A stretch of 64,000 nt of DNA from Dehalococcoidia bacterium (GCA_965221895.1 CBDCSX010000002.1:1595366-1659365), one strand, 5' to 3'. Positions 14,871-63,974 are shown, numbered from the stretch's first letter. Made by a program: numbers and translations. The notes: generated from the sequence alone by a model not told the origin.

Positions 14871-15332
14871 TTGTGGATCATACGGGCCAATGTCGCAAAA
14901 ATCGGTGAGAGATTAGGAATAGTAGAGATGAACACAGGAGAATTCGAATCTAGAGACAGACTGAAGTATGTAGATGCAATGTGGGATGAGACTCCACCAG
15001 CTTCGCCATCCGCTATTAGGCTATACGTGGACTGTGTAGCAGAGGCTGTTTCAAAATACGATAGAGTTTCGCCCGAAACCCGAACTATAGAGTTGTTCCT
15101 TAAGGCTTTTGCAAGATGTCTAGAATCTAGAACCGCGTCTCTTGGAAAAGTTCTGGATAGAAGAGATGTGGAAGATTGTAACCATTTGATTCGTGCAACC
15201 GGGGCTATGGTATTGGTTTACCGGCATAGAGATTTTTATGAGGCTGGAAGTCCGTTTCTAGATTGTGCGTTACCTAAACTGATGCCGGGAAAGGGTCCAT
15301 GCCCATATCATCAGCCAAAGAACCAAGAATAA
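14871..15332 (+). CDS. Hypothetical protein in a lower-GC islet
   Basis: Open reading frame with no recognisable motifs. Confidence 0.35.
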   Translation: MWIIRANVAKIGERLGIVEMNTGEFESRDRLKYVDAMWDETPPASPSAIRLYVDCVAEAVSKYDRVSPETRTIELFLKAFARCLESRTASLGKVLDRRDVEDCNHLIRATGAMVLVYRHRDFYEAGSPFLDCALPKLMPGKGPCPYHQPKNQE

Positions 15333-15502
15333 GCGTGTATCTAACAACGTGATTGTCCCCCTCGTTTGACCACCCATCCCCCTTGCCCTATTCTGGCCTT
15401 GAATGCTGCCCGGATTAATAACCCCACGGAGCAGGCCGTGGAGGTGTTCCTGGTGGGCACCCAAATTCTTGGGAGCGGCGGGAGACTGCCCACTTCATGT
15501 TC

Positions 15503-15531
15503 TTGACAGTGGTTTGATAGCTTCCTATAAT
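15503..15531 (+). promoter_or_regulatory. Near-consensus sigma70-type promoter TTGACA-17 nt-TATAAT upstream of the DUF1800/DUF1501 pair
   Basis: Read directly: ttgaca(15503-15508), a 17-nt spacer, then tataat(15526-15531), ~85 bp upstream of the start at 15616. Confidence 0.55.
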
Positions 15532-15615
15532 TGCGTCACCTCTATTTGACCTCGGCGAAAGCTGCGGGCTGTTAGGGGCGCATGTAGTTTGTAGATTATA
15601 GAAAGGAGTGGCTTA

Positions 15616-17031
15616 ATGGCAAATAAGGACATCGCATTGATGGCCCACCTGATGCGCCGCGCCGGTTTCGGAGCCACCTACGACGAGCTTGAAGCAAGAG
15701 CCGCCAAGGGCTACGAAGCCACCGTGGAAGAGCTGGTGGACCCCGACGCCCACGGTGTGTCGGAGTACGACGAGTTGACTTTGGCTCGGTACTTCCCAGA
15801 CATGGAAGTTCCTTCCGCTCCCGCCATGGGCACCGCCAACTTCATGTACCACCTGTACACAACCCCTCGTCCCCTGGTGGAAAAGATGACCCTCTTCTGG
15901 CACATGGTCTTCGCCACCGGCAACTCCAAGGTGGACAACCCACCGGAGATGCTCCAGCAGATTGAGATGTTCCGCCAGCACGGAATGGGGGACTACAAGG
16001 AACTGCTGGTTCGCGTTTCCAAAGACCCCTCCATGATATTCTGGCTGGACAACAACGAGAACCACAAGCGCGCCCCCAACGAGAACTGGGGCCGCGAGCT
16101 CTTGGAGCTTTTCTCCATGGGGCAGGGCAACTATTCCGAAGACGACGTCAAGATGGCTGCCCGGGCCTTCACCGGCTGGACCATCCTTCCCAAGATTCCG
16201 CGCACTCCCTATCAGCGCCACCACTGGAAATTCATCTACAAGGCGGAGGACCACGACCATAGTGAAAAGACCTTCCTGGGCCACACCGGCCGCTTCAACG
16301 GGGAGGACATCATAGACCTCATCGTGCAGCAGCCGGCCACCGCCAATTTCATGGCCCGTCATCTGTACAACTTCTTCGTCGCCGACGAAGTCCAGGTACC
16401 CAGCTGGCTCGACGTGCCCCCCAAGGACCCCGAGGCCGTTCAAGCCATCGCAAAAACTTTTATCGATTCCGACTACGACATTAGGACTACCCTGCGCTTC
16501 ATCTTCAAGTCCGACTTCTTCAAGGACGAGAGCGTATGGTTCGCCAAGGTGAAGAACCCCGCCGAGGTGGTAGCAGGCACGATTCGCCTGGTCGGAGACT
16601 TTCAGGAACCCCGCCCCGGAGTGCTTAACATCGGACTAGAAGGCACCTACCAGGGGCAGGACCTGATCAATCCCCCCAGCGTCGAGGGCTGGCATACGGG
16701 TCAGGAGTGGATAGACACCGGCTCCCTGGTTCGCCGCGTCAACTTCGTCGCCGACAGCTTCAGCAACACTGACATGCCCGGCGTCAAGTTCATCATCAAC
16801 CGGCTGGGCGCCAGCGATACCCTCACCCCCGAGGAGCTCGTGGACGGCTGCCTGGAACTCTTGGGCGCCGTTCAGATAAACGACGAGACCCGCGAACAGC
16901 TCCTCACCCACGTCCGGGCCGACGGCGACATTAGCCGCGGCTCCACGGAGGAAGAGACCAGGACTTTCGGCAAGAGAGTAACGGAAGTACTGCAACTAAT
17001 AGCCGCAACCAGGGAGTACCAGTTCGGCTAG
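15616..17031 (+). CDS. DUF1800 family protein
   Basis: N-terminal 'HLMRRAGFGATYDEL' and overall DUF1800 length, paired with DUF1501 downstream. Confidence 0.75.
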   Translation: MANKDIALMAHLMRRAGFGATYDELEARAAKGYEATVEELVDPDAHGVSEYDELTLARYFPDMEVPSAPAMGTANFMYHLYTTPRPLVEKMTLFWHMVFATGNSKVDNPPEMLQQIEMFRQHGMGDYKELLVRVSKDPSMIFWLDNNENHKRAPNENWGRELLELFSMGQGNYSEDDVKMAARAFTGWTILPKIPRTPYQRHHWKFIYKAEDHDHSEKTFLGHTGRFNGEDIIDLIVQQPATANFMARHLYNFFVADEVQVPSWLDVPPKDPEAVQAIAKTFIDSDYDIRTTLRFIFKSDFFKDESVWFAKVKNPAEVVAGTIRLVGDFQEPRPGVLNIGLEGTYQGQDLINPPSVEGWHTGQEWIDTGSLVRRVNFVADSFSNTDMPGVKFIINRLGASDTLTPEELVDGCLELLGAVQINDETREQLLTHVRADGDISRGSTEEETRTFGKRVTEVLQLIAATREYQFG

Positions 17032-17083
17032 GCGATTGGAAAGCTTAAGATGAACCTTAACCCCAATGAAAGGAGCAAACGTC

Positions 17084-25777: not shown

Positions 25778-27835
25778 TCAATAGACCGGGACAGTGTACT
25801 CGTGGTAGCGCACGGGGCCGAAGTGGGCCTGGTTGACCTCGTATCCCTCAACGAAGCCCGGGTTGTAGACTGCTTTCTCAAATACCCACAAAAGGGGAAT
25901 GCTCAGGAACTCATCATGCCAAAAATCGCCGAGTTCTTGAATTAATTTTTTCCGCTCCATAGGATCGGCCACGGTGTCAAAATGTTCCTTCCACTCGGTG
26001 ATGAAGGGCAATTCGTAGTATGGCCTGATGCTTTTCCGCCACAGGAATCCCATGCCCGCTGAGGGCAACTGCGGCGACCAACGAACCAAAAAAATGGTTC
26101 CGTTCAACGCGCGATTCATCAGCCCCTCCTGAACAAGTGAGTGCTCAGTAACCGTCAGGAAAGCGTTTATGCCGATCTCTTGCCACATTTCAGCAATCGC
26201 AAGCGTAACTTCGGGAATTTCCGGTGTCCCTCTCAGGTTCGATGAAGCAAAAAGGTCCAGACTGAAGCCATCAGGATAGCCGGCTTCAAGCAATAGTTCC
26301 CGGGCTTTTTCCGGATCGTAAGGATAGGGCCAGCCGCCATCTGCACCAGTCTTGCCATCGGGCCCAGGAATGGGCGCCCATTCATCTTTGAAGGAATCCC
26401 GCCACTCGGCCATGTGGGAGACGGCGCTGGGTATTGCGTCTCCACCAAAGAACGTGTCATTGATGTAGTTCCGGTCGATAGAGTAATTGAGCGCCTGTCT
26501 AACTAACTTGTTCCGGGTGGGTGCATTCTCACTATAGTTGGGTGTAGGTGTGCCATCCAGTGCCTCGGGCAGGTACCAGGGAATGACCCCCCATAGGTGG
26601 AAGCCAGGCAGAGTGCTTTTGGCAATCTCCAAGCCATATTCTTCAGTCCGATCGAACACTTCCCTTGGAAGCTGGCTAATGTGGGACTCTCCGGTTATTG
26701 TCATAGCCAGGACTAATGCAGGCTCTTGGATCCAAAGGAACTGAAGCTCGCGGAAGTCCGGTTCCTTCCGGTAGTGCCCCACGTTCCTTTCCAGCAGGAA
26801 GTGCTCGTTGCGGATGTACTCCACGAAGCTAAATGCCCCTGTTCCAATAGGGTGGTTGGTGTAACCATCCTCGCCGCCTACGTCGTCCCAGTAGTCTTTA
26901 CTGATGAGCCCGAAGGTCCAGTCCTCTGAAAGGTAAATGTGGGCGTCCGGATGGACGAAGTCCAAATTCCAGGTAACGGCGTTACCTTCAAGCACAATAT
27001 CTTCACCACTTTCGAGCCATGGCCTCCACGTGCCGGTGTTATTGGCCCGATCTGATTCTATTCCAGCCTGCAAGAGCCATGTCCACCGAACATCTTCTGG
27101 TGAGACCACGTACTCGCTTGACTTACCCTTCATGTAGTAGGGAATGTTCTCTTTGAGGTGGAAAGTCCACTTCCTGGCATCATCACTGACGGACCAAGCC
27201 TCTGCGAGGTGGGTATTTTCTACCGCTCCGGTCTTACGATTCACGCCCACCAGATAGTCATAGAGATTGTGGAGAGGCCCGCTGGAACTCTGGAATGTCA
27301 TGTAAGGGAGTCTCACTTGATGGGTAGGCGGCGGCATCGCTATCTTCAGCCTGGGGTCCAAGGGGATAAGCTGGGTTGTAGGGGAGGTTGGCGTAGGGAT
27401 GGGCGTGGCAGTCGGCGGCGCTGCTTCTGAGGGCGTAGGCATCGGACTGGCTGCGGGCGTAGCACTTGGGGTTTCTGTGGGGACGGGTGTTGGTAGCGAT
27501 GTCGGCCTCGCTGTAAGGATTGGCGTGGGAACTTGTCTCTCATTAGGCACCGATGTGGCGATAGGCGTTGGTGAAGGAGTCGGCCGCGTTGTCGGTGTGA
27601 CTGTAGGTACCGGCCTCGCCATAGGGACAGGAGTGGGAATAGATCCAGACGTTTGTGGCAAATCGTCTTCTGTCCCACACCCAGTGGCAACCAACATCAC
27701 TGCTAATACTACACCGAGAGAAAAGGCCAACCTGGTGACGTGGGACGATTGCTCACGAATGAATATGACTAGCTCAATTAAGAACACCAACTTATAATTA
27801 GAAGTTGGCGAAATTCTGAAGGGATTCATAGGCAT
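25778..27835 (-). CDS. ABC transporter substrate-binding protein, family 5 (peptide/oligopeptide type), a lipoprotein with a Pro/Thr linker. The start is uncertain; the ORF runs to 27946.
   Basis: Lipobox 'LVATGC', PT-rich linker, and SBP_bac_5-type body. Confidence 0.7.
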   Translation of the reverse strand: MPMNPFRISPTSNYKLVFLIELVIFIREQSSHVTRLAFSLGVVLAVMLVATGCGTEDDLPQTSGSIPTPVPMARPVPTVTPTTRPTPSPTPIATSVPNERQVPTPILTARPTSLPTPVPTETPSATPAASPMPTPSEAAPPTATPIPTPTSPTTQLIPLDPRLKIAMPPPTHQVRLPYMTFQSSSGPLHNLYDYLVGVNRKTGAVENTHLAEAWSVSDDARKWTFHLKENIPYYMKGKSSEYVVSPEDVRWTWLLQAGIESDRANNTGTWRPWLESGEDIVLEGNAVTWNLDFVHPDAHIYLSEDWTFGLISKDYWDDVGGEDGYTNHPIGTGAFSFVEYIRNEHFLLERNVGHYRKEPDFRELQFLWIQEPALVLAMTITGESHISQLPREVFDRTEEYGLEIAKSTLPGFHLWGVIPWYLPEALDGTPTPNYSENAPTRNKLVRQALNYSIDRNYINDTFFGGDAIPSAVSHMAEWRDSFKDEWAPIPGPDGKTGADGGWPYPYDPEKARELLLEAGYPDGFSLDLFASSNLRGTPEIPEVTLAIAEMWQEIGINAFLTVTEHSLVQEGLMNRALNGTIFLVRWSPQLPSAGMGFLWRKSIRPYYELPFITEWKEHFDTVADPMERKKLIQELGDFWHDEFLSIPLLWVFEKAVYNPGFVEGYEVNQAHFGPVRYHEYTVPVY

Positions 27836-27973
27836 TGCCTGTAGGGGAACGGAATTTCTTGTCGACGTAGTATACAATACGCACATCAGAATGCAACTCG
27901 GTACGAAGTCAAGGGACGACAAACCCCGGCAAGCATTACTCACCATTTATAACCACCGCAAGGAGATTCTCCT

Positions 27974-29554: not shown

Positions 29555-29707
29555 CACCGCCGCGAACTCTCCCTCTCAATTGGCGGACATTTTCATCAAT
29601 ACGACTGCACGCAAACCTTTATAGTTGCGGTATATTGTCATATATTGACATGATTCAACATTTACCGCATCATGGCTTGAAAATCTCTTGCACCGTAGGA
29701 AGCAGTC

Positions 29708-30199
29708 TTGGAAGTCAACGACACACCATCGGCGCTGATGTCCCTGCCACAACTGGCCCGATACCTGGCCATGAAGGAGCGCACCATCTATGACTGGGCC
29801 CAATCAGGCAAAATCCCTGCGTTCAAGCTAGGCGCCACTTGGCGGTTCCGTCGGTCAGAGATAGACGCGTGGCTGGAGACTCAGCGGGTAGGAGTCGACG
29901 TCGCCTCTCTCCGCGCACCCCTGGTACCGCCGGTGCAACCCCCGTTGACGGCGTGGGAAGTTCGCCGGCAGAAGGAGGAAGCTCACCGGCAGCTAGTTGA
30001 GGCCTGCCGAAAGGAAATTGAGATGGTCATCCGCGACGAGAGCCGAAGCGTGTTTGTTATTGACCAATTTACCTACCAGTTCGGGGCCGACGTGGTAAGG
30101 GAAGTGGTGGAACAGCTTCGAAAGGAGAAGCTAATCACTGTTTCAGAGCACCGGGGACGAGACGGAGAGAAAGTCAAAGTTATTGGAAGGAGGAACTGA
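29708..30199 (+). CDS. Excisionase-family (AlpA/Xis-like HTH_17) DNA-binding protein with a C-terminal extension
   Basis: 'LPQLARYLAMKERTIYDWAQSGKIPAFKLGATWRFRRSEIDAWLE'. An AT-rich region containing the palindrome TGTCATATATTGACA lies upstream at 29625-29655. Confidence 0.65.
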   Translation: MEVNDTPSALMSLPQLARYLAMKERTIYDWAQSGKIPAFKLGATWRFRRSEIDAWLETQRVGVDVASLRAPLVPPVQPPLTAWEVRRQKEEAHRQLVEACRKEIEMVIRDESRSVFVIDQFTYQFGADVVREVVEQLRKEKLITVSEHRGRDGEKVKVIGRRN

Positions 30200-30200
30200 A

Positions 30201-30722
30201 GTGACATTTCTGGGATTAGGTAAGCCAAGGAAGCTCGAAGATCTCAAGATTGACGACCTCCGAAAGGAGCGAGCGCAGCAGGAGATAAAGCAGGATATTC
30301 TCTTGACGGCCTTGCGGCGGGCCCAAAAGGAGTACGACCGCCTGTTGGAGGTGGCGTCGGAGCCGGGGATAAACGATGCGGCAAGGAACGTGGCGGCCTA
30401 CCGGATGAGCCACGCCTCCAAGCGAAGGGGCAGGGCCGAGGCCGACCTGTGCCGGGTTATAACTCGAATGACTGTGCTGGATTCTGCCATCGACAACATC
30501 AGTATGAAGATGGACCTGCAGAAGCGCGGCGTTTGGAAACAGATCAACGACCTTGATAAGGAAACCTTGGTTGAGCAATTGGATGCCTTCGTCGTTAGGA
30601 CAAAAGCGGCAGACGACAAGTTAGAAGCCATGACTGAGGTGAACGTTGTCTTCCACCGTGGACCTGAATTCGACCGGGCCAGAGCCGCTATCGAGGAAGC
30701 GGCCAGCGAGAAGATCGACTAG
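30201..30722 (+). CDS. Coiled-coil hypothetical protein, with a GTG start 7 nt after GGAGG and 1 nt after the upstream stop
   Basis: Charged heptad-like sequence. Tight translational coupling to the genes on either side. Confidence 0.5.
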   Translation: MTFLGLGKPRKLEDLKIDDLRKERAQQEIKQDILLTALRRAQKEYDRLLEVASEPGINDAARNVAAYRMSHASKRRGRAEADLCRVITRMTVLDSAIDNISMKMDLQKRGVWKQINDLDKETLVEQLDAFVVRTKAADDKLEAMTEVNVVFHRGPEFDRARAAIEEAASEKID

Positions 30723-30742: not shown

Positions 30743-33259
30743 TTGAGACAGGAAGAACATGACACTTTAATCCTGCGTCCGGGCCGGCCCACTGGCGGGC
30801 TATTCGGCAAGTCGCTGACCGTCGGTCCCTACCAGGTTGGCATTGTCGTCCGGGACGGCGAACTGCAGCCTCCCTTCTCGGAAGGCACTAGAAGGCTGCC
30901 GAGAGGCCACGCGATGGAGACCTACGTGGCCTCAACAGCACCGTTCAATCTGGTCTTCTGGCTTGCCGACCCGGGCGATCCGGAAAGACCGGCGCAAGGA
31001 CTCTCGCTGGATCAGCCCGCACTCACCGCCGACGGACTGCCCGTCACAGGCCGTATGGAACTCACGCTATCCGTCACATCCGAGTATGCCGCCCGGCTGC
31101 TGCGACTGAGGAGAATGGGCCAACGCGAGATCAGGGCGAGCGACGTCTCCAACGCCATCAGGGGCGAACTGGTTGCCAAGGTGCTGGCTCTGGAACTGCA
31201 TCGCTACACGTCCGACGAGTTGCGGGGCAACCGAGCCCCTCTCCAAGACATACACGGCTCCATCAATACGGAGCTAGCCTCGACTATCTCGGGCTATGGC
31301 CTCCGTCTGGACAATTTCAACGTCAGCTGGGGCCTTACGCTCCAAGAACGGGAACATATCAAAGAGGCTCGGCACAGGAGCGCCATACGGGACATCGAGC
31401 GAGAGGGGGAGTTGGAGCAGGCCAGGTTGAGAGGGGAACCGGCAAGGAACGCCGAAACCATCGAACAAGCGCCGCCTCCGCGCAGCGAGACATCTGATGA
31501 ACCATCAACAGATGCAGATTCGAAGGATGGCGGACAGGGCTTCGGAGGGCCATCAGAGCCAGGCAACCAAGGAGTGCAACCGAGGGGAGCATGGGATCCC
31601 AAGTGGGTACTTGCGGTGGCCGTGGTGGCAATAGTCGGACTCGCTGGCGCATTGTTATATTTCACTAGCTTGGACTCATCCGGCGCTTCTCCGGAGGAGT
31701 CCTCCGTGACAACCGCGGAACCCATGCCGATACCGCTCCAAGACCACAACTGTCCCGACTTTGAAACGCAGTCGGAAGCCCAAGACTATTATGAGCGTGC
31801 GGGAGGTCCCGATTTAGACCCGCACCGACTTGATGACGACGGCGACGGCATCGCCTGCGAAGGATTTTTTTCAGATAGATTGCCCACAGACTCGCCGCCA
31901 TCTTCAACCAGGTCCGACACCCCGACTCCTGCGCCCACTGCCGCTTCAACGGCCACACCGCCAGTTGCATCGCAGCCAATAATCATCAATGTGTCCATAC
32001 CTTCGCCAATGCAGACACCAACCGCTGTGCCGTCGCCTACGGTCACACTCAATCCAACGACTGTGCCAACCGCCGTGCCGACACCAGCGGTTACACCCAA
32101 TCCAACGGCTGCACCAACCCCCGTATCGATACCCACACCCAAGTCGTCAGAACGTACAAGGGGCGATTTGTCGTGCTTTGTACCAGAATGCTCTCGGCGC
32201 TCAGATCCGCTCAAAGACTCTTTCGACAACTTTTTGGTAGAAGCCACGTTTGTCAACCCAACTAGCACGGACGAATTCAAGTATGGCTTCACCATCGACG
32301 GCACGTTCAATAATAACGTCTCCGAGCAGATTGAGATCAGGATAACCAACGACCGGACTTGGAGGGCGTTCATCCGAAAGGTCTACCATGAATCCGCACC
32401 GGTCAACATAGACCGACGACAAATCGAAATTGACGGCGGGGAGATACCCTATCCAATCGTGAACACCAGCGCTGGAGGTTCCAACAAACTAGAGGCAACT
32501 ATTGTTGGAGACGAAGGGTGCCTTTATGTAAATTCTATTCTTATTTCCTGCTTCGACATCTCAGGCCGCTCCCTGACGAGGGGGATACTCGTATCTTCTG
32601 AGAAAGGAGATGTCCGGTATAACGGCTTTAGAGCAAGGGAAGCGATGGCAGGAACTGAGGGGCCGCTTGCGACCCCAAGTCCCACGCCCACGCCCGCATC
32701 AATACCAACTCCCATGTCGGCAGAACGTGCCAGGGGTGACTTGTCCTGCTCAGTGTCAGAATGTGCGCAACGCTCAGATCCACTCGGCATCTCGTTCGCC
32801 AACTTTTTGGTTGAGGCCACGTTCTTCAATCCGACCAGTATGGAATCATTCAAGTATGGCTTCACAATCAAAGGTGCGTCCCAGGATGACATCATTGAAA
32901 GGATTGAGATCAGGGTCGCCAACGACCGAACCTGGAGAGCGTACATCCAAAAGTCCTCCCATGAGTCCTTTCCCGTCAATTTAGATCATCGGCAAATAGA
33001 AATTAGCGGCGGGGAGATACCCGTTCCATTCGTCGACACTAACGTCGGAGGCTCCAATCGGCTCGAGGCAACCGTTCTTGGTGACGAAGGGTGCCTCTAC
33101 GTCAATGGCATTTTCATTTCCTGCTTCGACCTGTCCAACCGCGCCTTTACGAGGGACATAGCCGTATCTTCTATGCAAGGTGACGTCCTGTATACCGGCT
33201 TCAGAGCAAGGGAAGCGCTGGCAGGAACTGAGTGGCCGCTTTCCACGCCCCCTCCATAG
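30743..33259 (+). CDS. Multidomain membrane protein: N-terminal SPFH/band-7-like domain, TM helix (~aa 287-306), Excalibur Ca-binding domain, Pro/Thr linker, and 2 tandem copies of an uncharacterised ~150-aa domain
   Basis: Excalibur 'CPDFETQSEAQDYYERAGGPDLDPHRLDDDGDGIACE'. SPFH-like 'ETYVASTAPFNLVFWLADP...SNAIRGELVAKV'. Repeated domain 'LVEATF(V/F)NPTS..FKYGFTI...GCLYVN.I.ISCFD(I/L)S' at aa ~535-690 and ~715-835. Confidence 0.6.
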   Translation: MRQEEHDTLILRPGRPTGGLFGKSLTVGPYQVGIVVRDGELQPPFSEGTRRLPRGHAMETYVASTAPFNLVFWLADPGDPERPAQGLSLDQPALTADGLPVTGRMELTLSVTSEYAARLLRLRRMGQREIRASDVSNAIRGELVAKVLALELHRYTSDELRGNRAPLQDIHGSINTELASTISGYGLRLDNFNVSWGLTLQEREHIKEARHRSAIRDIEREGELEQARLRGEPARNAETIEQAPPPRSETSDEPSTDADSKDGGQGFGGPSEPGNQGVQPRGAWDPKWVLAVAVVAIVGLAGALLYFTSLDSSGASPEESSVTTAEPMPIPLQDHNCPDFETQSEAQDYYERAGGPDLDPHRLDDDGDGIACEGFFSDRLPTDSPPSSTRSDTPTPAPTAASTATPPVASQPIIINVSIPSPMQTPTAVPSPTVTLNPTTVPTAVPTPAVTPNPTAAPTPVSIPTPKSSERTRGDLSCFVPECSRRSDPLKDSFDNFLVEATFVNPTSTDEFKYGFTIDGTFNNNVSEQIEIRITNDRTWRAFIRKVYHESAPVNIDRRQIEIDGGEIPYPIVNTSAGGSNKLEATIVGDEGCLYVNSILISCFDISGRSLTRGILVSSEKGDVRYNGFRAREAMAGTEGPLATPSPTPTPASIPTPMSAERARGDLSCSVSECAQRSDPLGISFANFLVEATFFNPTSMESFKYGFTIKGASQDDIIERIEIRVANDRTWRAYIQKSSHESFPVNLDHRQIEISGGEIPVPFVDTNVGGSNRLEATVLGDEGCLYVNGIFISCFDLSNRAFTRDIAVSSMQGDVLYTGFRAREALAGTEWPLSTPPP

Positions 33260-33370: not shown

Positions 33371-33448
33371 CAAGGCAAAGCAACGCCCCGGCAGGCAACT
33401 TAGCCGCCAACTTTGATTCCACCCGATCCTTCGGTGTATGATAGGTGT

Positions 33449-33652
33449 ATGGTACGCACCAACGTAGATATCGACGATCGGGCGTGCGCCGAGGTGATGC
33501 GGCGATATCAGCTATCCACCAAGCGCGAGGCGGTCAATTTTGCCCTCCGCACCCTGGCTGCGGAGTCCCTATCCTTAGCTGAGGCCCGCAACCTCCGCGG
33601 CATCGGCTGGGAGGGCGACCTGGACGTAATGCGGTCTTCATCCTCGCCGTGA
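33449..33652 (+). CDS. vapB: VapB-family antitoxin
   Basis: 'MVRTNVDIDDRACAEVMRRYQLSTKREAVNFALRTLAAE' with a 4-bp overlap onto the PIN gene. Confidence 0.75.
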   Translation: MVRTNVDIDDRACAEVMRRYQLSTKREAVNFALRTLAAESLSLAEARNLRGIGWEGDLDVMRSSSSP

Positions 33653-34044
33653 TTCTGGTCGACTCCTCAGCCTGGATAGAGTTTCTTCGAGACACGGGAT
33701 CTACGGTCTGCGAGGCGGTGGACCGGTTGCTAGGACAGGAGGTGGCCGTCTGCGACGTCATTAGCATGGAGATCCTCGCCGGCGCTCGTGACGAATCGCA
33801 CTTGGCAAGCCTACGACGCCTGCTAGCCAGGGCCGCCATGATCCGTACGAGGCCAACGGACTATGAAGACGCTGCTGCGCTCTATCGTCGCTGCCGCCGG
33901 GGAGGAGAGACCGTTCGCAAGCTGGTCGACTGTCTCATCGCCTCGGTAGCCATACGCGCTGGTGTGGCCGTTCTGCACCAGGATGCTGATTTCGACACCC
34001 TAGCCCGTCATACGAAACTGCAAGTGCACCAATCCAATCCTTAA
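33649..34044 (+). CDS. vapC: VapC PIN-domain toxin
   Basis: 'MILVDSSAWIEFLRDTGS...CDVISMEILAGAR...DCLIASVAIRAGVAVLHQDADF' PIN acidic residues. Confidence 0.8.
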   Translation: MILVDSSAWIEFLRDTGSTVCEAVDRLLGQEVAVCDVISMEILAGARDESHLASLRRLLARAAMIRTRPTDYEDAAALYRRCRRGGETVRKLVDCLIASVAIRAGVAVLHQDADFDTLARHTKLQVHQSNP

Positions 34045-59752: not shown

Positions 59753-62330
59753 TCAGGGCGCCCAGACGGTGAAATTCCGGAAGTCTACGTCGCGGTTGCT
59801 GGTGCTGTAGAAGCCGGCGATGGCGGAAATACCGCCGGCTTCAAGGTTGAAGTCGAGAATCAAGGTAGCCTCAAGAGTCCCGTTGACAAAGAACCAGCCT
59901 GTATCTCCCATAGAAATGAGCAACAGTTGGTTTTGGCTTCCCGGGCCGTCACGCCAGTTTGAGAGGCGACCCGAACTCAATCCGGTATACTCATCGTCCC
60001 CAACGCTACGTGTGTGGTGCTCCCATTGACCACTATTGTGAACTGATATTGCTTCAAGATGGCCGGAGAAAGGCCTACGGAAGATAAACCCGTAGTCCCA
60101 TTTTCCTGATTGAGGATTGATAAACTCAACCTCTGTCACAAAATCGCGGGAGTGCAAACCACTTCTGTGGGTTCCGACGATCCCTTCGCCGTATTCAATA
60201 GTTTCGCTTGTTGGGCCGTACCGACGGCTCAGGTCGTAGCCCCGGAAGTTCTCGTATTTGGTCGAGGCTCCCGCTTTTTCGCTGCCGGCGTAGGCACCTG
60301 TCATGATTGCCACGTCTCCACTGACCGTCACGTCACTCAGATCAAAGGAGGCGATGAAGGTTTGGTTAACGAAGAGCCATCCCTCTTCTTCTAACGCCAC
60401 CACCATTATCTGATTCTGCTGCCCTCCCCGTAACTTCAAGTTGGAAACAACACCGGCGGCCACCTGATTGTACGGAGCGTCATTACCGGACTGCACAGAC
60501 CATCTCCCTCTACTGCTGATAATCACCTGCAAGAAGGAGGGATCATCTTCGAAAAGGTCGTATCTCAGGAAGAAGCCGTAGCTCCAGGGGTGTTCGGAAG
60601 CGTCGTACGGATTGGTGAAGGTGGCCTCCACCATTAGGTCGTCAAGGGAGACATCGGCGTATTCGGTCTGGATGAAATTGTCCTCGGGGTTGTGTTGCAG
60701 ATCCCCATCGAGCGGGCCGAAGTCGTAATCGGCACTGGGGGTTGGGGTGAATCCAGGCGTGGGAGTTGGGCGAGGTGTTGGCGTTGGGGTGGGTGAAGGC
60801 CGGGCGGTCTTGAGGGTGTGCAGTTGTTCCTGGATGGTGGGGGCGGCGATGGCGAAGCCGACGTTATCTACCGGCCGTCCGCTTTGAGTTTCTTCCTGGC
60901 GGAAGGTGTTGATGCCTAGAATCTGGCCGGTTTCGGAAAGCATCGGGCCGCCGCTGTTACCCGGATTGATGGCCGCATCCGTCTGGATAACGAGGCTCTG
61001 ATGACTTTCGTCGTAGCGAATGGCGGAAACGATGCCCTTGGTGACCGTTGCCTCCCCTGGAAGCCCTAGAGGATAGCCCATGGCAAAGACATCATCACCC
61101 GGATTGAGTTCGGAAACGTTTCCAAAGGAGAGGGCCCGGAAGTCGCCGCAGCAGACACGGAGGACGGCCAAGTCCCGGACCGCATCCGTGCCGAGAATTT
61201 CGGCGCTGTAGGTAGAGGAGTCGTTAACCTCCACCTGGGTATCGCTTTCGTCCTCGATGACATGAGTAGTTGGTGAGAACGAGGGCTGCATCGTCGTCGA
61301 CCTCAAAAATCACGCCGGAACCGGAGCCTTTGTCGGTGCGAATTCTGACGACTGAAGGGCGCACGTCCTCAATCATGGCGCTGATGGTCGGCGTTGGTTC
61401 GGGCGTGGGGGTCGGCGCAGGAGTGGGGACGGGCGTCGGGGTGGGAGTTGGCGTTGGCTCAGGGGTGGGAATTGGGGTTGGTACAGGCGTGGGCTGAGGT
61501 GTTGGTACAGGCGTAGGCTCCGGAGTGGGCGCTGGCGTTGGGGTGGGAATGGGCGTTGGGGTTGCCGTTGGAGCCATGGTCGGCGTGAGCGTGGGAGTGG
61601 GGATTGGGGTGGGAATGGGAGTAGGGATGGCCGTGGGAGCCACGGTCGGCGTGGGCGTGGGGATTGGCGTGGGTTCAGCCGTGGGCGTGGGGGTGAGGAG
61701 GGCGACGACAATGGGAGGCTCGGTGACGCCGGGGTAGTCGAGGCTCAGATACCGACGTTCGTCGGAAGTTGAGCCGGGGGCGACGTAAATCAGGACAAGG
61801 TCGTCCTCGTCTACCGGCACTTGGAAGCAGACCTTGCCTTCGAGTTGGCTACCTTTTGGAATTTCGCCTTCAAGCCGGTCGGGTATGGAACCGCAGGAGT
61901 GTATTACCGGGTTGTAGTCGCTGCGGCTGCTGCCCACCAGATGAAAGTGGGTATGGCTGACGTTGACGGTGTCGGCGCCGGTTAGGTTAAAGATGCGAAG
62001 AGCAACCATGTAGTACCGATAGCCGGGGGGAGGCGAGGGATTGTCGGGGAAGTTTTGGAGGAGAAATGGTTGCGCGTCTTGCATGACGCCGACGACCTGC
62101 ACTTGCAGCCCGTTGGAGCCAACGAGTACGTCTCCGGCAGGGTAGGGGTTGTCGAGGGTGAAGCCTGGTGGGGCGGGGGTAACGATTGGAGTTGGGGCAG
62201 GCGTAGGTTCAGGCGTGGGAGTTGCGATTGGAGGCGGCGCGGGGGTTGGGGTGCTTCCGCCGCCGCAGGCGACTGCGACGAGGGCGGCGAGCAGCAGGCA
62301 GGGAAGGAATAGAATTTTCAATAGGCGCAT
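59753..62330 (-). pseudogene. Lipoprotein S1-family serine protease paralog: DUF4352-like N-domain, PT linker, protease domain, PT linker, and 2 copies of the domain shared with the 838-aa protein. It is interrupted by a frameshift (1 extra nt) near 61270.
   Basis: ORF 61224..62330 ends '...[19 protein letters not shown]|SCHRGRK'. ORF 59753..61306 continues '|HVIEDESD...GNSGGPM'. Removing one nt at 'aactac(t)catgtc' restores TNYHVI. Confidence 0.6.
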
Positions 62331-62470: not shown

Positions 62471-63193
62471 TCATGACATCAACATCTGCCGAAAACAACG
62501 ATTAACCATTTGGTCGCACGAAGGACATTCTATTATGCATTCGGCAATCATTTCTGGTCCACTCACCAGCAAATTCAATCCTTTCCCTAACAAGCACGCA
62601 TCGCGTTTAGCTATCCACGCTTCGTATTCGCTCCTGCATTTTAGGTTTCCACACTTCACATTGGCCTTGAGCGTTGCGCTTCTGAACTTGTTGGCAACTC
62701 TGTAGAACTCACTTGAGCCAGAAACTCGCGCAGCAGATGCAACTAGGCCCTCGTACTGTTCCCAACCTAGTTCTGAAGTGAAGTCAAAGAGAAAGAGTAC
62801 ATTCAACATAGGAACAGATACTTCTATCCCCTGCCTGATGTCTTGAATGGCCATTACATACTTCAGGTTGCTAGGGTCGTTTCCCAACCCAGCGAAGATT
62901 CCAACCTCGAAGCCAATCCACGCCTGCGTCCAGTATTTTCCTGATACTTCGTCGCCCAAGAGGACAAAGAGCATCTCACTTTCAGCTATCTTGTCCGCCA
63001 GGACCTTGGCTGGAGGAGCCTTTATACGGTGCTCAGGGCTGAGTTCGTATAGGAAGGGTGCAACACCAGCCTTGCAACAGGCACACTTTAGTTTCTTGGC
63101 TATCTCTTTGTCATTCGCTGAATGTGAAACAAATGCCTGCTTCATGTGTTGGCCATTACAAACTCTACATTCGAAGCCTTGAGACTGTGACAC
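62471..63193 (-). CDS. TIR-like domain protein with N- and C-terminal Cys-rich (zinc-ribbon-like) segments, in a lower-GC islet
   Basis: 'KQAFVSHSANDKEIAKKL...APFLYE...EMLFVLLGDEVSGKYWTQAWIGFEVG' fits a TIR/TIR-like (DUF1863) pattern. C-x2-C pairs at both ends. Confidence 0.4.
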   Translation of the reverse strand: MSQSQGFECRVCNGQHMKQAFVSHSANDKEIAKKLKCACCKAGVAPFLYELSPEHRIKAPPAKVLADKIAESEMLFVLLGDEVSGKYWTQAWIGFEVGIFAGLGNDPSNLKYVMAIQDIRQGIEVSVPMLNVLFLFDFTSELGWEQYEGLVASAARVSGSSEFYRVANKFRSATLKANVKCGNLKCRSEYEAWIAKRDACLLGKGLNLLVSGPEMIAECIIECPSCDQMVNRCFRQMLMS

Positions 63194-63263
63194 TATTCAT
63201 CCTCCTCTGGGTACCCATTGAGGCGCTGGTTTAGTATTTCAAAGGGCGACATCCGAATAGCGC

Positions 63264-63974
63264 CTAAGGCACAATTTCACATATGAATTCGATTGCATCT
63301 TCGACTCTTGTCTTAATTGCAATTAGTTGAGGTAGCGAGAATCTTCCCGCTGGGCCATGCGCACCAGAGTTAAGGTCTTTGAACAAGACAGACAGATTCT
63401 TGATGTTTGCCTCGGTAAAATCCTCAAGGGCTTCATTGCCTAGTCCGCGGCGATCCAAACAATAATGTATTTTGGCACGTCGAGTAGGCATACCACGCTC
63501 AGTAACTTGACAGTCTGGAAACCATGACAACACCTCGCCGTCGGGAGCTCCGCAATTGAGAATATCCGCGAGGATTTCCCTTGAGCTTGTACAAAAATGC
63601 CGGGCAGCATCCGGGTTATGAGGGTTCAGAGCAAATAGGGCACCGGACCAGCGATCCTGTATGTCTACAGGATAACCCTTTAGCGATTCCGTTAACTTCG
63701 TACTAGTAAGTTCTTCATCTCCCAACTGTACTTGGCTGTTGTATCCAAGCAACGTGTTGAGCACATTCGCGCTGTTGGCAGTGTCTCGTTCAGCGAGGTC
63801 TGAGAGAAATGGATTCGCATTACTATGGTCTAGTCGTTCATACGCAGAGTTGAGAGCAATAACAGACAAATGCGACGAGGTATAGCTGATGGGGATTGTT
63901 CGAGAAGAAAGACTCTTTAGGGCGGATCGTAGTCGGGATCTGTTGGCCCTGACGCGTGCATTGTGTGCCCGCAC
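63264..63974 (-). CDS. Hypothetical protein upstream of the TIR-like gene on the same strand. It may extend beyond the window edge.
   Basis: ORF only; lower GC. Confidence 0.3.
   Translation of the reverse strand: MRAHNARVRANRSRLRSALKSLSSRTIPISYTSSHLSVIALNSAYERLDHSNANPFLSDLAERDTANSANVLNTLLGYNSQVQLGDEELTSTKLTESLKGYPVDIQDRWSGALFALNPHNPDAARHFCTSSREILADILNCGAPDGEVLSWFPDCQVTERGMPTRRAKIHYCLDRRGLGNEALEDFTEANIKNLSVLFKDLNSGAHGPAGRFSLPQLIAIKTRVEDAIEFICEIVP

Follow-up and report, generated by a model that had tools for sequence, protein, structure and literature searches.

In Bacillus subtilis, the cytosolic SPFH protein YdjI (SamI) recruits PspA (PMC8581546; bioRxiv 10.64898/2026.02.06.704340). PspA and Band-7 proteins became associated repeatedly in evolution, a coupling that was proposed to connect extracellular sensing with membrane dynamics (PMC11237479). 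A link between SPFH and ESCRT proteins is also described in archaea, and winged-helix (wH) proteins were found adjoining PspA (PMC10936438). Here we analyse a 64,000-nucleotide stretch of DNA from a Dehalococcoidia bacterium (GCA_965221895.1, CBDCSX010000002.1:1595366-1659365), hereafter the window, in which positions are counted from the first nucleotide. It contains an operon for a putative DNA-binding protein, a small helical-hairpin protein, and an 838-aa membrane protein with a divergent SPFH domain (positions 30743-33259, + strand). The combination of an SPFH scaffold with a small helical partner is of a known kind. New are the location of the SPFH domain N-terminal to the transmembrane (TM) helix, the exchangeable extracellular domains, the unrecognised family of the partner protein, and a lectin family without a Pfam model. 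We found no description of any of the three module proteins in the literature.

The SPFH gene has a TTG start, and its product is predicted to be a bitopic membrane protein with the N-terminus inside and the C-terminus outside. The predicted protein consists of a cytoplasmic SPFH/Band_7 domain without an N-terminal membrane anchor (30818-31426, aa 26-228), an acidic, Gly/Pro-rich low-complexity linker (31427-31600, aa 229-286), a single TM helix (31601-31666, aa 287-308), an extracellular Excalibur calcium-binding motif (31745-31861, aa 335-373), a Pro/Thr-rich stalk of about 90 aa (31874-32146, aa 378-468), and two lectin-fold domains of the concanavalin A (ConA)-like beta-sandwich type, R1 (32150-32662, aa 470-640) and R2 (32723-33232, aa 661-830). 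This order of domains, proposed in an earlier note made from the sequence of the window, is borne out by Pfam matches, hydropathy and the alignment of the two repeats.

The Pfam model Band_7 (PF01145) matches aa 26-227 of the full protein with an E-value of 1.3e-7 and a score of 32.3 bits (gathering score 23.6). When aa 1-240 are searched alone, the score is 36.3 bits. The match covers positions 2-173 of the 176 positions of the model. Among 19 members of the family, Band_7 is matched independently by 13, and two match Band_7_1, which we take to be the YdjI-type SPFH family. Hence the SPFH assignment of the earlier note survives the profile search, and by these matches the N-terminal domain is classified as a divergent SPFH/Band-7 domain. 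No NCBIfam model matches the 838-aa protein. An hhalign comparison of the family with QmcA and HflC gave no signal, which is a weak test, as the targets were single sequences. A word-based search with the N-terminal 380 aa yielded 63 relatives of the whole protein. A genome scan located the SPFH family in Dehalococcoidia metagenome-assembled genomes, the nearest being OZ253467.1 with 94% identity over the first 240 aa.

A single segment of the protein, at aa ~287-308, is strongly hydrophobic, with a 19-residue Kyte-Doolittle maximum of 2.65 at aa 289; neither a signal peptide nor a hydrophobic segment is present upstream of aa 287 by this measure, so that the sole TM helix follows the SPFH domain. 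The TM segment is flanked by Arg and Lys on its N-terminal side and by Asp and Glu on its C-terminal side; therefore the N-in/C-out orientation is predicted and the SPFH domain would be cytoplasmic, as the earlier note had it. The linker between the SPFH domain and the TM helix is poorly conserved in the family alignment. The Excalibur motif (PF05901, 24.7 bits; gathering score 22) is positioned C-terminal to the TM helix, on the acidic side, and its sequence DDDGDGIACE fits the pattern DxDxDGxxCE, in agreement with its description as a near-textbook match. It is absent from the homologues P0016 and P0024. A weak hit to Shr-like_HID, which at an E-value of 0.01 fell short of the threshold, was attributed to chance.

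In canonical SPFH proteins (stomatin, HflK/C, flotillin/FloT, QmcA), the domain is preceded by a TM helix or hairpin and followed by a long coiled coil from which a cage is built. The window protein resembles them in its above-threshold Band_7 match, its predicted membrane association and the helix that follows the domain. In contrast to canonical members, its anchor is located after the domain, the helix is about 30 aa long and is followed by a disordered linker, a large part of the protein is predicted to be extracellular, and the NfeD partner is absent.

The C-terminal repeats R1 and R2 are 69% identical over 171 aa in an ungapped alignment (E-value of 1e-90), and their DNA is about 75% identical. 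The earlier note had correctly recognised two copies but put them at ~150 aa, whereas each has 171 aa and the period is 191 aa. The repeat has the two-sheet jelly-roll sandwich of 12-14 strands that defines ConA-like proteins and superposes on known members; it is a ConA-like lectin/glucanase beta-sandwich (CBM66-, galectin- or LamG-like), which is a fold-level assignment to a binding superfamily. Members of this superfamily with described families (CBM66, galectins, LamG/Laminin_G_3, DUF1080) differ from the window domains, which are 8-15% identical to any solved ConA-like member, score below every Pfam and NCBIfam threshold, and, in the subfamily found on SPFH proteins, carry four cysteines. 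Searches of the window copies against Pfam, NCBIfam and PADLOC gave no match. Among 39 family members, weak Pfam matches to Laminin_G_3 were found in five (best E-value of 8e-4) and to 3keto-disac_hyd in two; the window copies have neither. A search of PDB sequences with the lectin profile gave a single marginal match, the S-layer-domain protein 4qvs (E-value of 0.016). We classify the repeats by these profile comparisons as a separate large family that lacks a Pfam model and lies outside the named families Laminin_G_3, DUF1080 and CBM66. The statement of the earlier note that the domain could not be assigned thus holds for named sequence families, of which none matched, including any characterised housekeeping family, but not for the fold, which is assignable as ConA-like.

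A word-based homologue search with the repeat found only four relatives. An exhaustive profile search of 1.84 billion cluster representatives (clusters at 50% identity) yielded 1458 representatives with E-values of at most 1e-3, 845 of them at most 1e-10. Among the matches listed, 115 of 174 have two tandem C-terminal copies, and the maximum is six. In a sample of 66 members with N-terminal extensions, the most frequent partners are Trypsin_2 (37 members) and the Hanks-type kinase domain Pkinase (11 members); the remaining partner domains include collagen, TPR, RCC1 and caspase. The two members with a source name are both from Chloroflexota. The lectin copies of SPFH proteins form a subfamily with four conserved cysteines (SCFxPEC, EGCLYVN..ISCFD) that are absent from protease-type copies. 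In the structural model these are placed so as to suggest two disulfides, which would fit an extracytoplasmic site. The lipoprotein-like protein P0003 combines collagen triple-helix repeats (GPQGPxGDRGDV) with a single lectin-fold domain of the SPFH subfamily, and therefore the lectin module would also be displayed on a collagen-like stalk.

A Hanks-kinase motif was detected by a motif scan in 17 of the 147 best-listed representatives of the lectin family. Of these, 16 also have a TM segment that separates the kinase from the lectin domain, which is present in two to four copies; in these proteins the lectin domain is the predicted extracellular part of a receptor kinase. The topology of the window SPFH protein is the same as that of receptor Ser/Thr kinases such as PknB-PASTA, with a cytoplasmic N-terminal domain, one TM helix and repeated extracellular binding domains. 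The difference is in the cytoplasmic domain, which in the window protein is an SPFH scaffold with no evident signalling output.

A second pair of lectin-fold domains in the window is encoded at 59756-60724 on the minus strand (D1 at 60221-60724, D2 at 59756-60220; family hidden Markov model (HMM) i-E-values of 1.7e-56 and 6.9e-48). The family HMM finds all four window domains with E-values of 1e-41 to 1e-56 and nothing else in the window. This pair forms the C-terminus of an S1 (HtrA/Trypsin_2-type) lipoprotein protease (59753-62330, -; Trypsin_2 E-value of 1.5e-23, DUF4352 E-value of 2.3e-10), in which a signal and lipobox-like cysteine, DUF4352, a PT linker, the protease domain and a further PT linker precede the lectin-fold domains. 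R1 is 25-26% identical to the two C-terminal domains of the open reading frame (ORF) 59753-61306 (BLASTP E-values of 8e-9 and 2e-5). The sharing of the repeat with this protease, in two C-terminal copies, was rightly noted before, but the gene is longer than was assumed, since it spans 59753-62330 with a frameshift. A +1 frameshift near 61270 (61255-61290, -) divides the protease gene into two ORFs that overlap. The frameshift sequence, acc aac tac t cat gtc (TNY|HVIED), lies directly before the codon of the histidine in the family consensus TNxHV, a residue that we read as catalytic. This gene is either a pseudogene or affected by a sequencing error.

The SPFH gene is the third and last gene of an operon in the window. 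The first gene (29708-30199, +) encodes a 163-aa DNA-binding protein with an N-terminal HTH_17 domain of the excisionase/MerR type (Pfam E-value of 4e-17; TIGR01764 at 50.5 bits, cutoff 28.8) and a C-terminal domain of about 100 aa that is conserved but has no family match. The second gene (30201-30722, +) encodes the 173-aa helical-hairpin protein; it has a GTG start with GGAGG 8 nt upstream, it starts 1 nt after the stop codon of the first gene, and the SPFH gene starts 20 nt after its end. A promoter-like site (TTGACA, 17 nt, CATCAT; 29645-29673, +), found by a consensus scan with 10 of 12 matches and to be read as a pattern match only, lies in the 154-nt gap 5' of the HTH_17 gene. A sequence scan detected no terminator-like sites between the three genes. 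An excisionase role of the HTH_17 protein was rejected, because an adjacent integrase is lacking in the window and in most loci, and because the C-terminal domain of the protein is conserved along with the operon.

The gene order HTH_17 - hairpin - SPFH is conserved in all 14 distinct Dehalococcoidia-type loci that hold the hairpin gene and are long enough to judge (L001/3, L002, L005, L006, L009, L015 and L016-L023), including loci with differing flanks. It also occurs in the marine metagenome contigs L025, L028 and L030. The genes for the coiled-coil protein, the Xis-like protein and the SPFH protein, which were previously proposed to be a co-transcribed module, form a real module by this conservation; the length of the second gene product had to be corrected from 179 to 173 aa, with the start at GTG 30201, and its homologues start at the equivalent position.

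One to three SPFH paralogues are located 3' of the hairpin gene in each locus, and further paralogues occur alone elsewhere in the module-bearing genomes. Close relatives of the window protein have the order SPFH - TM - (Excalibur) - stalk - lectin with one lectin copy each, including an intact ORF in L002. Distant relatives share with the window protein no more than the SPFH module (about 230 aa), and their C-termini are ankyrin repeats, DUF4268, Zn-ribbon-like tails, PQQ-type propellers or SBP_bac_5. Some members have no C-terminal domain yet the same operon partners, and one member has an N-terminal LiaF-TM domain. By domain content, the C-termini of SPFH paralogues (lectin, PQQ propeller, SBP_bac_5, ankyrin) are predicted to be interchangeable binding modules, none of which is enzymatic. 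In locus L006 (5920-9201), a 1093-aa SPFH-family protein is fused to an extracellular solute-binding domain (SBP_bac_5, E-value of 2.7e-47). A separate TM-anchored SBP_bac_5 protein with a PT-rich linker is encoded in the window two genes upstream of the module (25778-27946, -).

The flanks of the module in the window and its closest relatives consist of conserved metabolic genes (SBP_bac_5, two amidohydrolases, a BNR protein and MFS transporters), and the window neighbourhood is one of peptide catabolism, including an M1 aminopeptidase. In other loci the module adjoins the trp operon, aconitase or TGT. A gene pair for a VapB antitoxin and a PIN-domain (VapC) protein (33413-34044, +) is located directly 3' of the SPFH gene, before the conserved BNR gene; both genes are present in L002, and only a VapB-like remnant is found in L001 and L003. 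In L017, a UPF0175 gene lies within the module. From these comparisons, the site downstream of the module appears to be an insertion spot for toxin-antitoxin genes. In two divergent genomes, HEPN_Swt1 genes are located between two SPFH paralogues (L018 10078-11704 and L019 8798-9604), at distances of 19-100 nt from their neighbours.

The AlphaFold2 (AF2) model of the helical-hairpin protein contains two helices (residues 23-58 and 65-114) packed as a hairpin, followed by three shorter helices; the predicted local distance difference test (pLDDT) score of the hairpin is 86-96. The charge is split along the chain, with an isoelectric point (pI) of 9.6 for aa 1-108 and 4.8 for aa 109-173. The order of helices in the model recalls that of ESCRT-III proteins, and the split from basic to acidic is likewise suggestive, not specific. 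The N-terminus has a conserved MxxLGxGK motif (MGILGFGK in the window), whose likeness by eye to the PspA and CHMP starts MGIFSRF and MGLFGK is suggestive, not specific.

A marine clade of the hairpin family, about 42% identical, has a different genomic context. Its members head a six-gene operon with two paralogous 6TM proteins, a coiled-coil protein of 293-355 aa, a HisKA_3 kinase with a TM domain that is a paralogue of the 6TM pair, and a NarL/GerE regulator. The operon was detected in L031-L044 and L047 (for example, L041 2611-7704), and its arrangement is the same in 9 of the 9 contigs long enough to judge. In the Lia system of B. subtilis, a two-component system of the HisKA_3/NarL class controls the PspA homologue LiaH. 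The marine operon resembles LiaIH-LiaFSR in that a gene of the hairpin clade accompanies polytopic membrane proteins, a HisKA_3 kinase and a NarL/GerE regulator, and one SPFH-family member has a LiaF-TM domain. It differs from LiaIH-LiaFSR in lacking a LiaH/PspA sequence match and in having two 6TM proteins and an extra coiled-coil protein; moreover, it lies outside the window. By analogy, we consider the marine operon to be an uncharacterised Lia-like system. The two genomic contexts typical of PspA, a Band-7 partner and a HisKA_3/NarL two-component system, are both found for the hairpin family, an analogy of context and not homology. In L001, a HisKA_3-type kinase and a GerE regulator, 31-38% identical to those of the marine operon, are encoded about 6 kb downstream of the module (15168-17064, -); no counterpart of this pair was found in the window at E-values of at most 1e-8.

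The closest characterised system is PspA-YdjGHI (SamGHI) of B. subtilis, which likewise includes a cytoplasmic SPFH domain without an N-terminal TM helix, a small helical membrane-associated partner protein and a linked transcription factor. Unlike that system, the partner protein of the Dehalococcoidia module has no detectable similarity to PspA, homologues of YdjG and YdjH are absent, the SPFH protein is predicted to cross the membrane and to carry extracellular lectin, propeller or solute-binding domains, and the regulator is of the HTH_17 type.

Given the analogy to PspA-Band-7 and Lia-type systems, we favour a role of the operon as a membrane or envelope maintenance or signalling module, at slightly less than even confidence. 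We speculate that SPFH domains oligomerise into a scaffold beneath the membrane, and that the TM helix and the stalk couple this scaffold to an envelope or extracellular glycan ligand held by the lectin pair, with calcium at the Excalibur motif stabilising the base of the stalk. The SPFH scaffold would recruit or organise the hairpin protein, which could act as a membrane-binding polymer of the ESCRT-III/PspA type, and the HTH_17 protein would control the operon. The lectin pair on proteases and kinases may target or sense the same envelope component. The architecture of the protein and the reality of the operon are much firmer than this functional reading.

Several observations weigh against a membrane-maintenance role of this kind. 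A search of PDB sequences with the SPFH family profile retrieved no SPFH chain, only a low-complexity match to TBP. The helix-prone stretch after the SPFH domain has about 30 residues (aa ~200-232) before the low-complexity linker begins; therefore a cage of the usual SPFH kind, walled by a long coiled coil, may not form. The low identity of the lectin-fold domains to solved lectins means that binding residues cannot be inferred. The AF2 model of the hairpin protein has an overall pLDDT of 75, a moderate confidence. This protein has no NCBIfam match, and Pfam searches with 25 members of its family gave nothing at E-values up to 10. Its family profile found no PDB sequence, and an hhalign comparison with PspA, Snf7 and CHMP4B gave a probability below 3%, a weak test given that the targets were single sequences. 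All functional statements are inferred from genomic context in uncultured organisms.

The binding modules at the C-termini invite another interpretation, namely that the SPFH protein is a scaffold for surface display and clustering in nutrient or particle capture. In this case, an SPFH ring would cluster TM-anchored binding domains, working alongside lectin-bearing secreted proteases, and the hairpin and HTH_17 proteins would be accessory, with no PspA-like role. SPFH proteins are established microdomain scaffolds (PMC8581546). All extracellular C-termini of the family are ligand-binding modules, including the solute-binding fusion in L006, the lectin pair is found also on S1 proteases, and the genes for SBP_bac_5, the two amidohydrolases and the M1 aminopeptidase place the window operon among functions of peptide catabolism. 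However, many members with the same operon partners have cytoplasmic C-termini (ankyrin, DUF4268, Zn-ribbon-like) or none, and neither the strict conservation of the hairpin and HTH_17 genes nor the second context of the hairpin family with HisKA_3/NarL is explained by surface clustering. We regard it as an unlikely function of the operon.

The genes found near the module in other genomes raise the question of an anti-phage or conflict system, in which the variable lectin, propeller or ankyrin domains would sense infection, the SPFH and hairpin proteins would alter the membrane (abortive infection or exclusion), and HEPN RNases would serve as extra effectors in certain variants. Within 7 kb of the module, these genomes encode ThsB_TIR, AAA_15/AAA_21, SduA_C (Shedu) and type I/IIG restriction-modification proteins, as well as HicB, PIN/RHH, HigB, SocA_Panacea, Fic and a serine recombinase. 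Toxin-antitoxin or defence-type Pfam families occur at this distance in 7 of 7 loci (L016-L020, L022 and L023), counts that come without a background rate, and toxin-antitoxin genes may be frequent in these genomes. The HEPN_Swt1 genes between SPFH paralogues, the VapBC pair directly 3' of the SPFH gene in the window, and the variable, mosaic C-terminal domains fit a conflict system, and the HTH domain scores 70.9 bits, just under the cutoff of 80 for MAD1 of the MADS system. On the other hand, the SPFH and hairpin proteins have no match in PADLOC-DB v2, where the HTH protein matches only the generic mad1 (E-value of 2e-7, 29 bits), and no relatives of the SPFH or hairpin protein were found in the viral contigs of IMG/VR. 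The core module has no recognisable effector enzyme, and in the window and its closest relatives it is syntenic with the amidohydrolase, BNR and MFS genes, other loci adjoining the trp operon, aconitase and TGT. A defence function is improbable in our estimate, slightly more so than surface clustering; if true, it would be the first SPFH-scaffold defence system known to us. The earlier note had offered stress, envelope and defence as possible roles. A role in envelope or membrane stress is consistent with the parallels to PspA-Band-7 and Lia-type operons, and the defence role finds no support in PADLOC or among viral sequences. A phage-borne origin of the module was set aside after the viral-contig scans for the hairpin and SPFH families proved empty.

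The extracellular part of the SPFH protein varies between close homologues. R1 belongs to the allele type of P0005 (81% identical), and R2 to the allele types of P0006 and P0009 (88% and 93% identical); the N-terminal regions are 98%, 95% and 86% identical to those of P0005, P0006 and P0009, respectively, so that R2 is closer to its P0009 counterpart than the N-terminal regions are to each other. By these alignments, the window protein combines two lectin allele types. Because the identities differ between the lectin and N-terminal parts, the extracellular domain appears to diverge faster than the SPFH part and to have been exchanged between lineages. That the two-copy arrangement, and only this detail, is an assembly chimera of two strain alleles is very improbable: every close homologue, including the 94%-identical locus L002, has a single copy, and R1 and R2 each resemble a different allele type of these single-copy homologues, but the repeats differ at about a quarter of their nucleotides, they are in frame with linkers of their own in an ORF that is open through both, tandem pairs are the rule in the wider lectin family, and a haplotype switch would swap an allele, not duplicate one.

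At the edge of the window (62471-63974, -), a 236-aa protein matches pP_pnuc_1, a predicted pPIWI-associating nuclease (E-value of 8e-36). The adjacent gene encodes a 240-aa Cys-rich protein without a Pfam match, in which the sequence FVSHSANDKE looks TIR-like by eye. This pair may belong to a prokaryotic Argonaute/pPIWI defence locus extending past the window.

To our knowledge, the cell envelope of Chloroflexota is poorly studied. Returning to a role in membrane or envelope maintenance, its broadest form is possible, if doubtful on present evidence: Dehalococcoidia, marine lineages included, would carry an unrecognised, highly diverged ESCRT-III/PspA-like family, whose SPFH partner is wired through the membrane to exchangeable extracellular domains, and the lectin pair would be a surface recognition module on Chloroflexota proteases and kinases. 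The hairpin family, with its two conserved operon contexts, is a testable candidate for a diverged bacterial ESCRT-III-like protein. The lectin family, which has at least 1458 clusters at 50% identity and occurs on secreted proteases and receptor kinases, would be worth curating and using in studies of envelope or glycan recognition. If the proposed role is true, the module would be another independent coupling of SPFH and ESCRT-III-like proteins, in which the SPFH scaffold itself reaches across the membrane to bind outside. It would form an outside-in link in one polypeptide, from contact with the envelope to a membrane-repair or remodelling polymer under the membrane.

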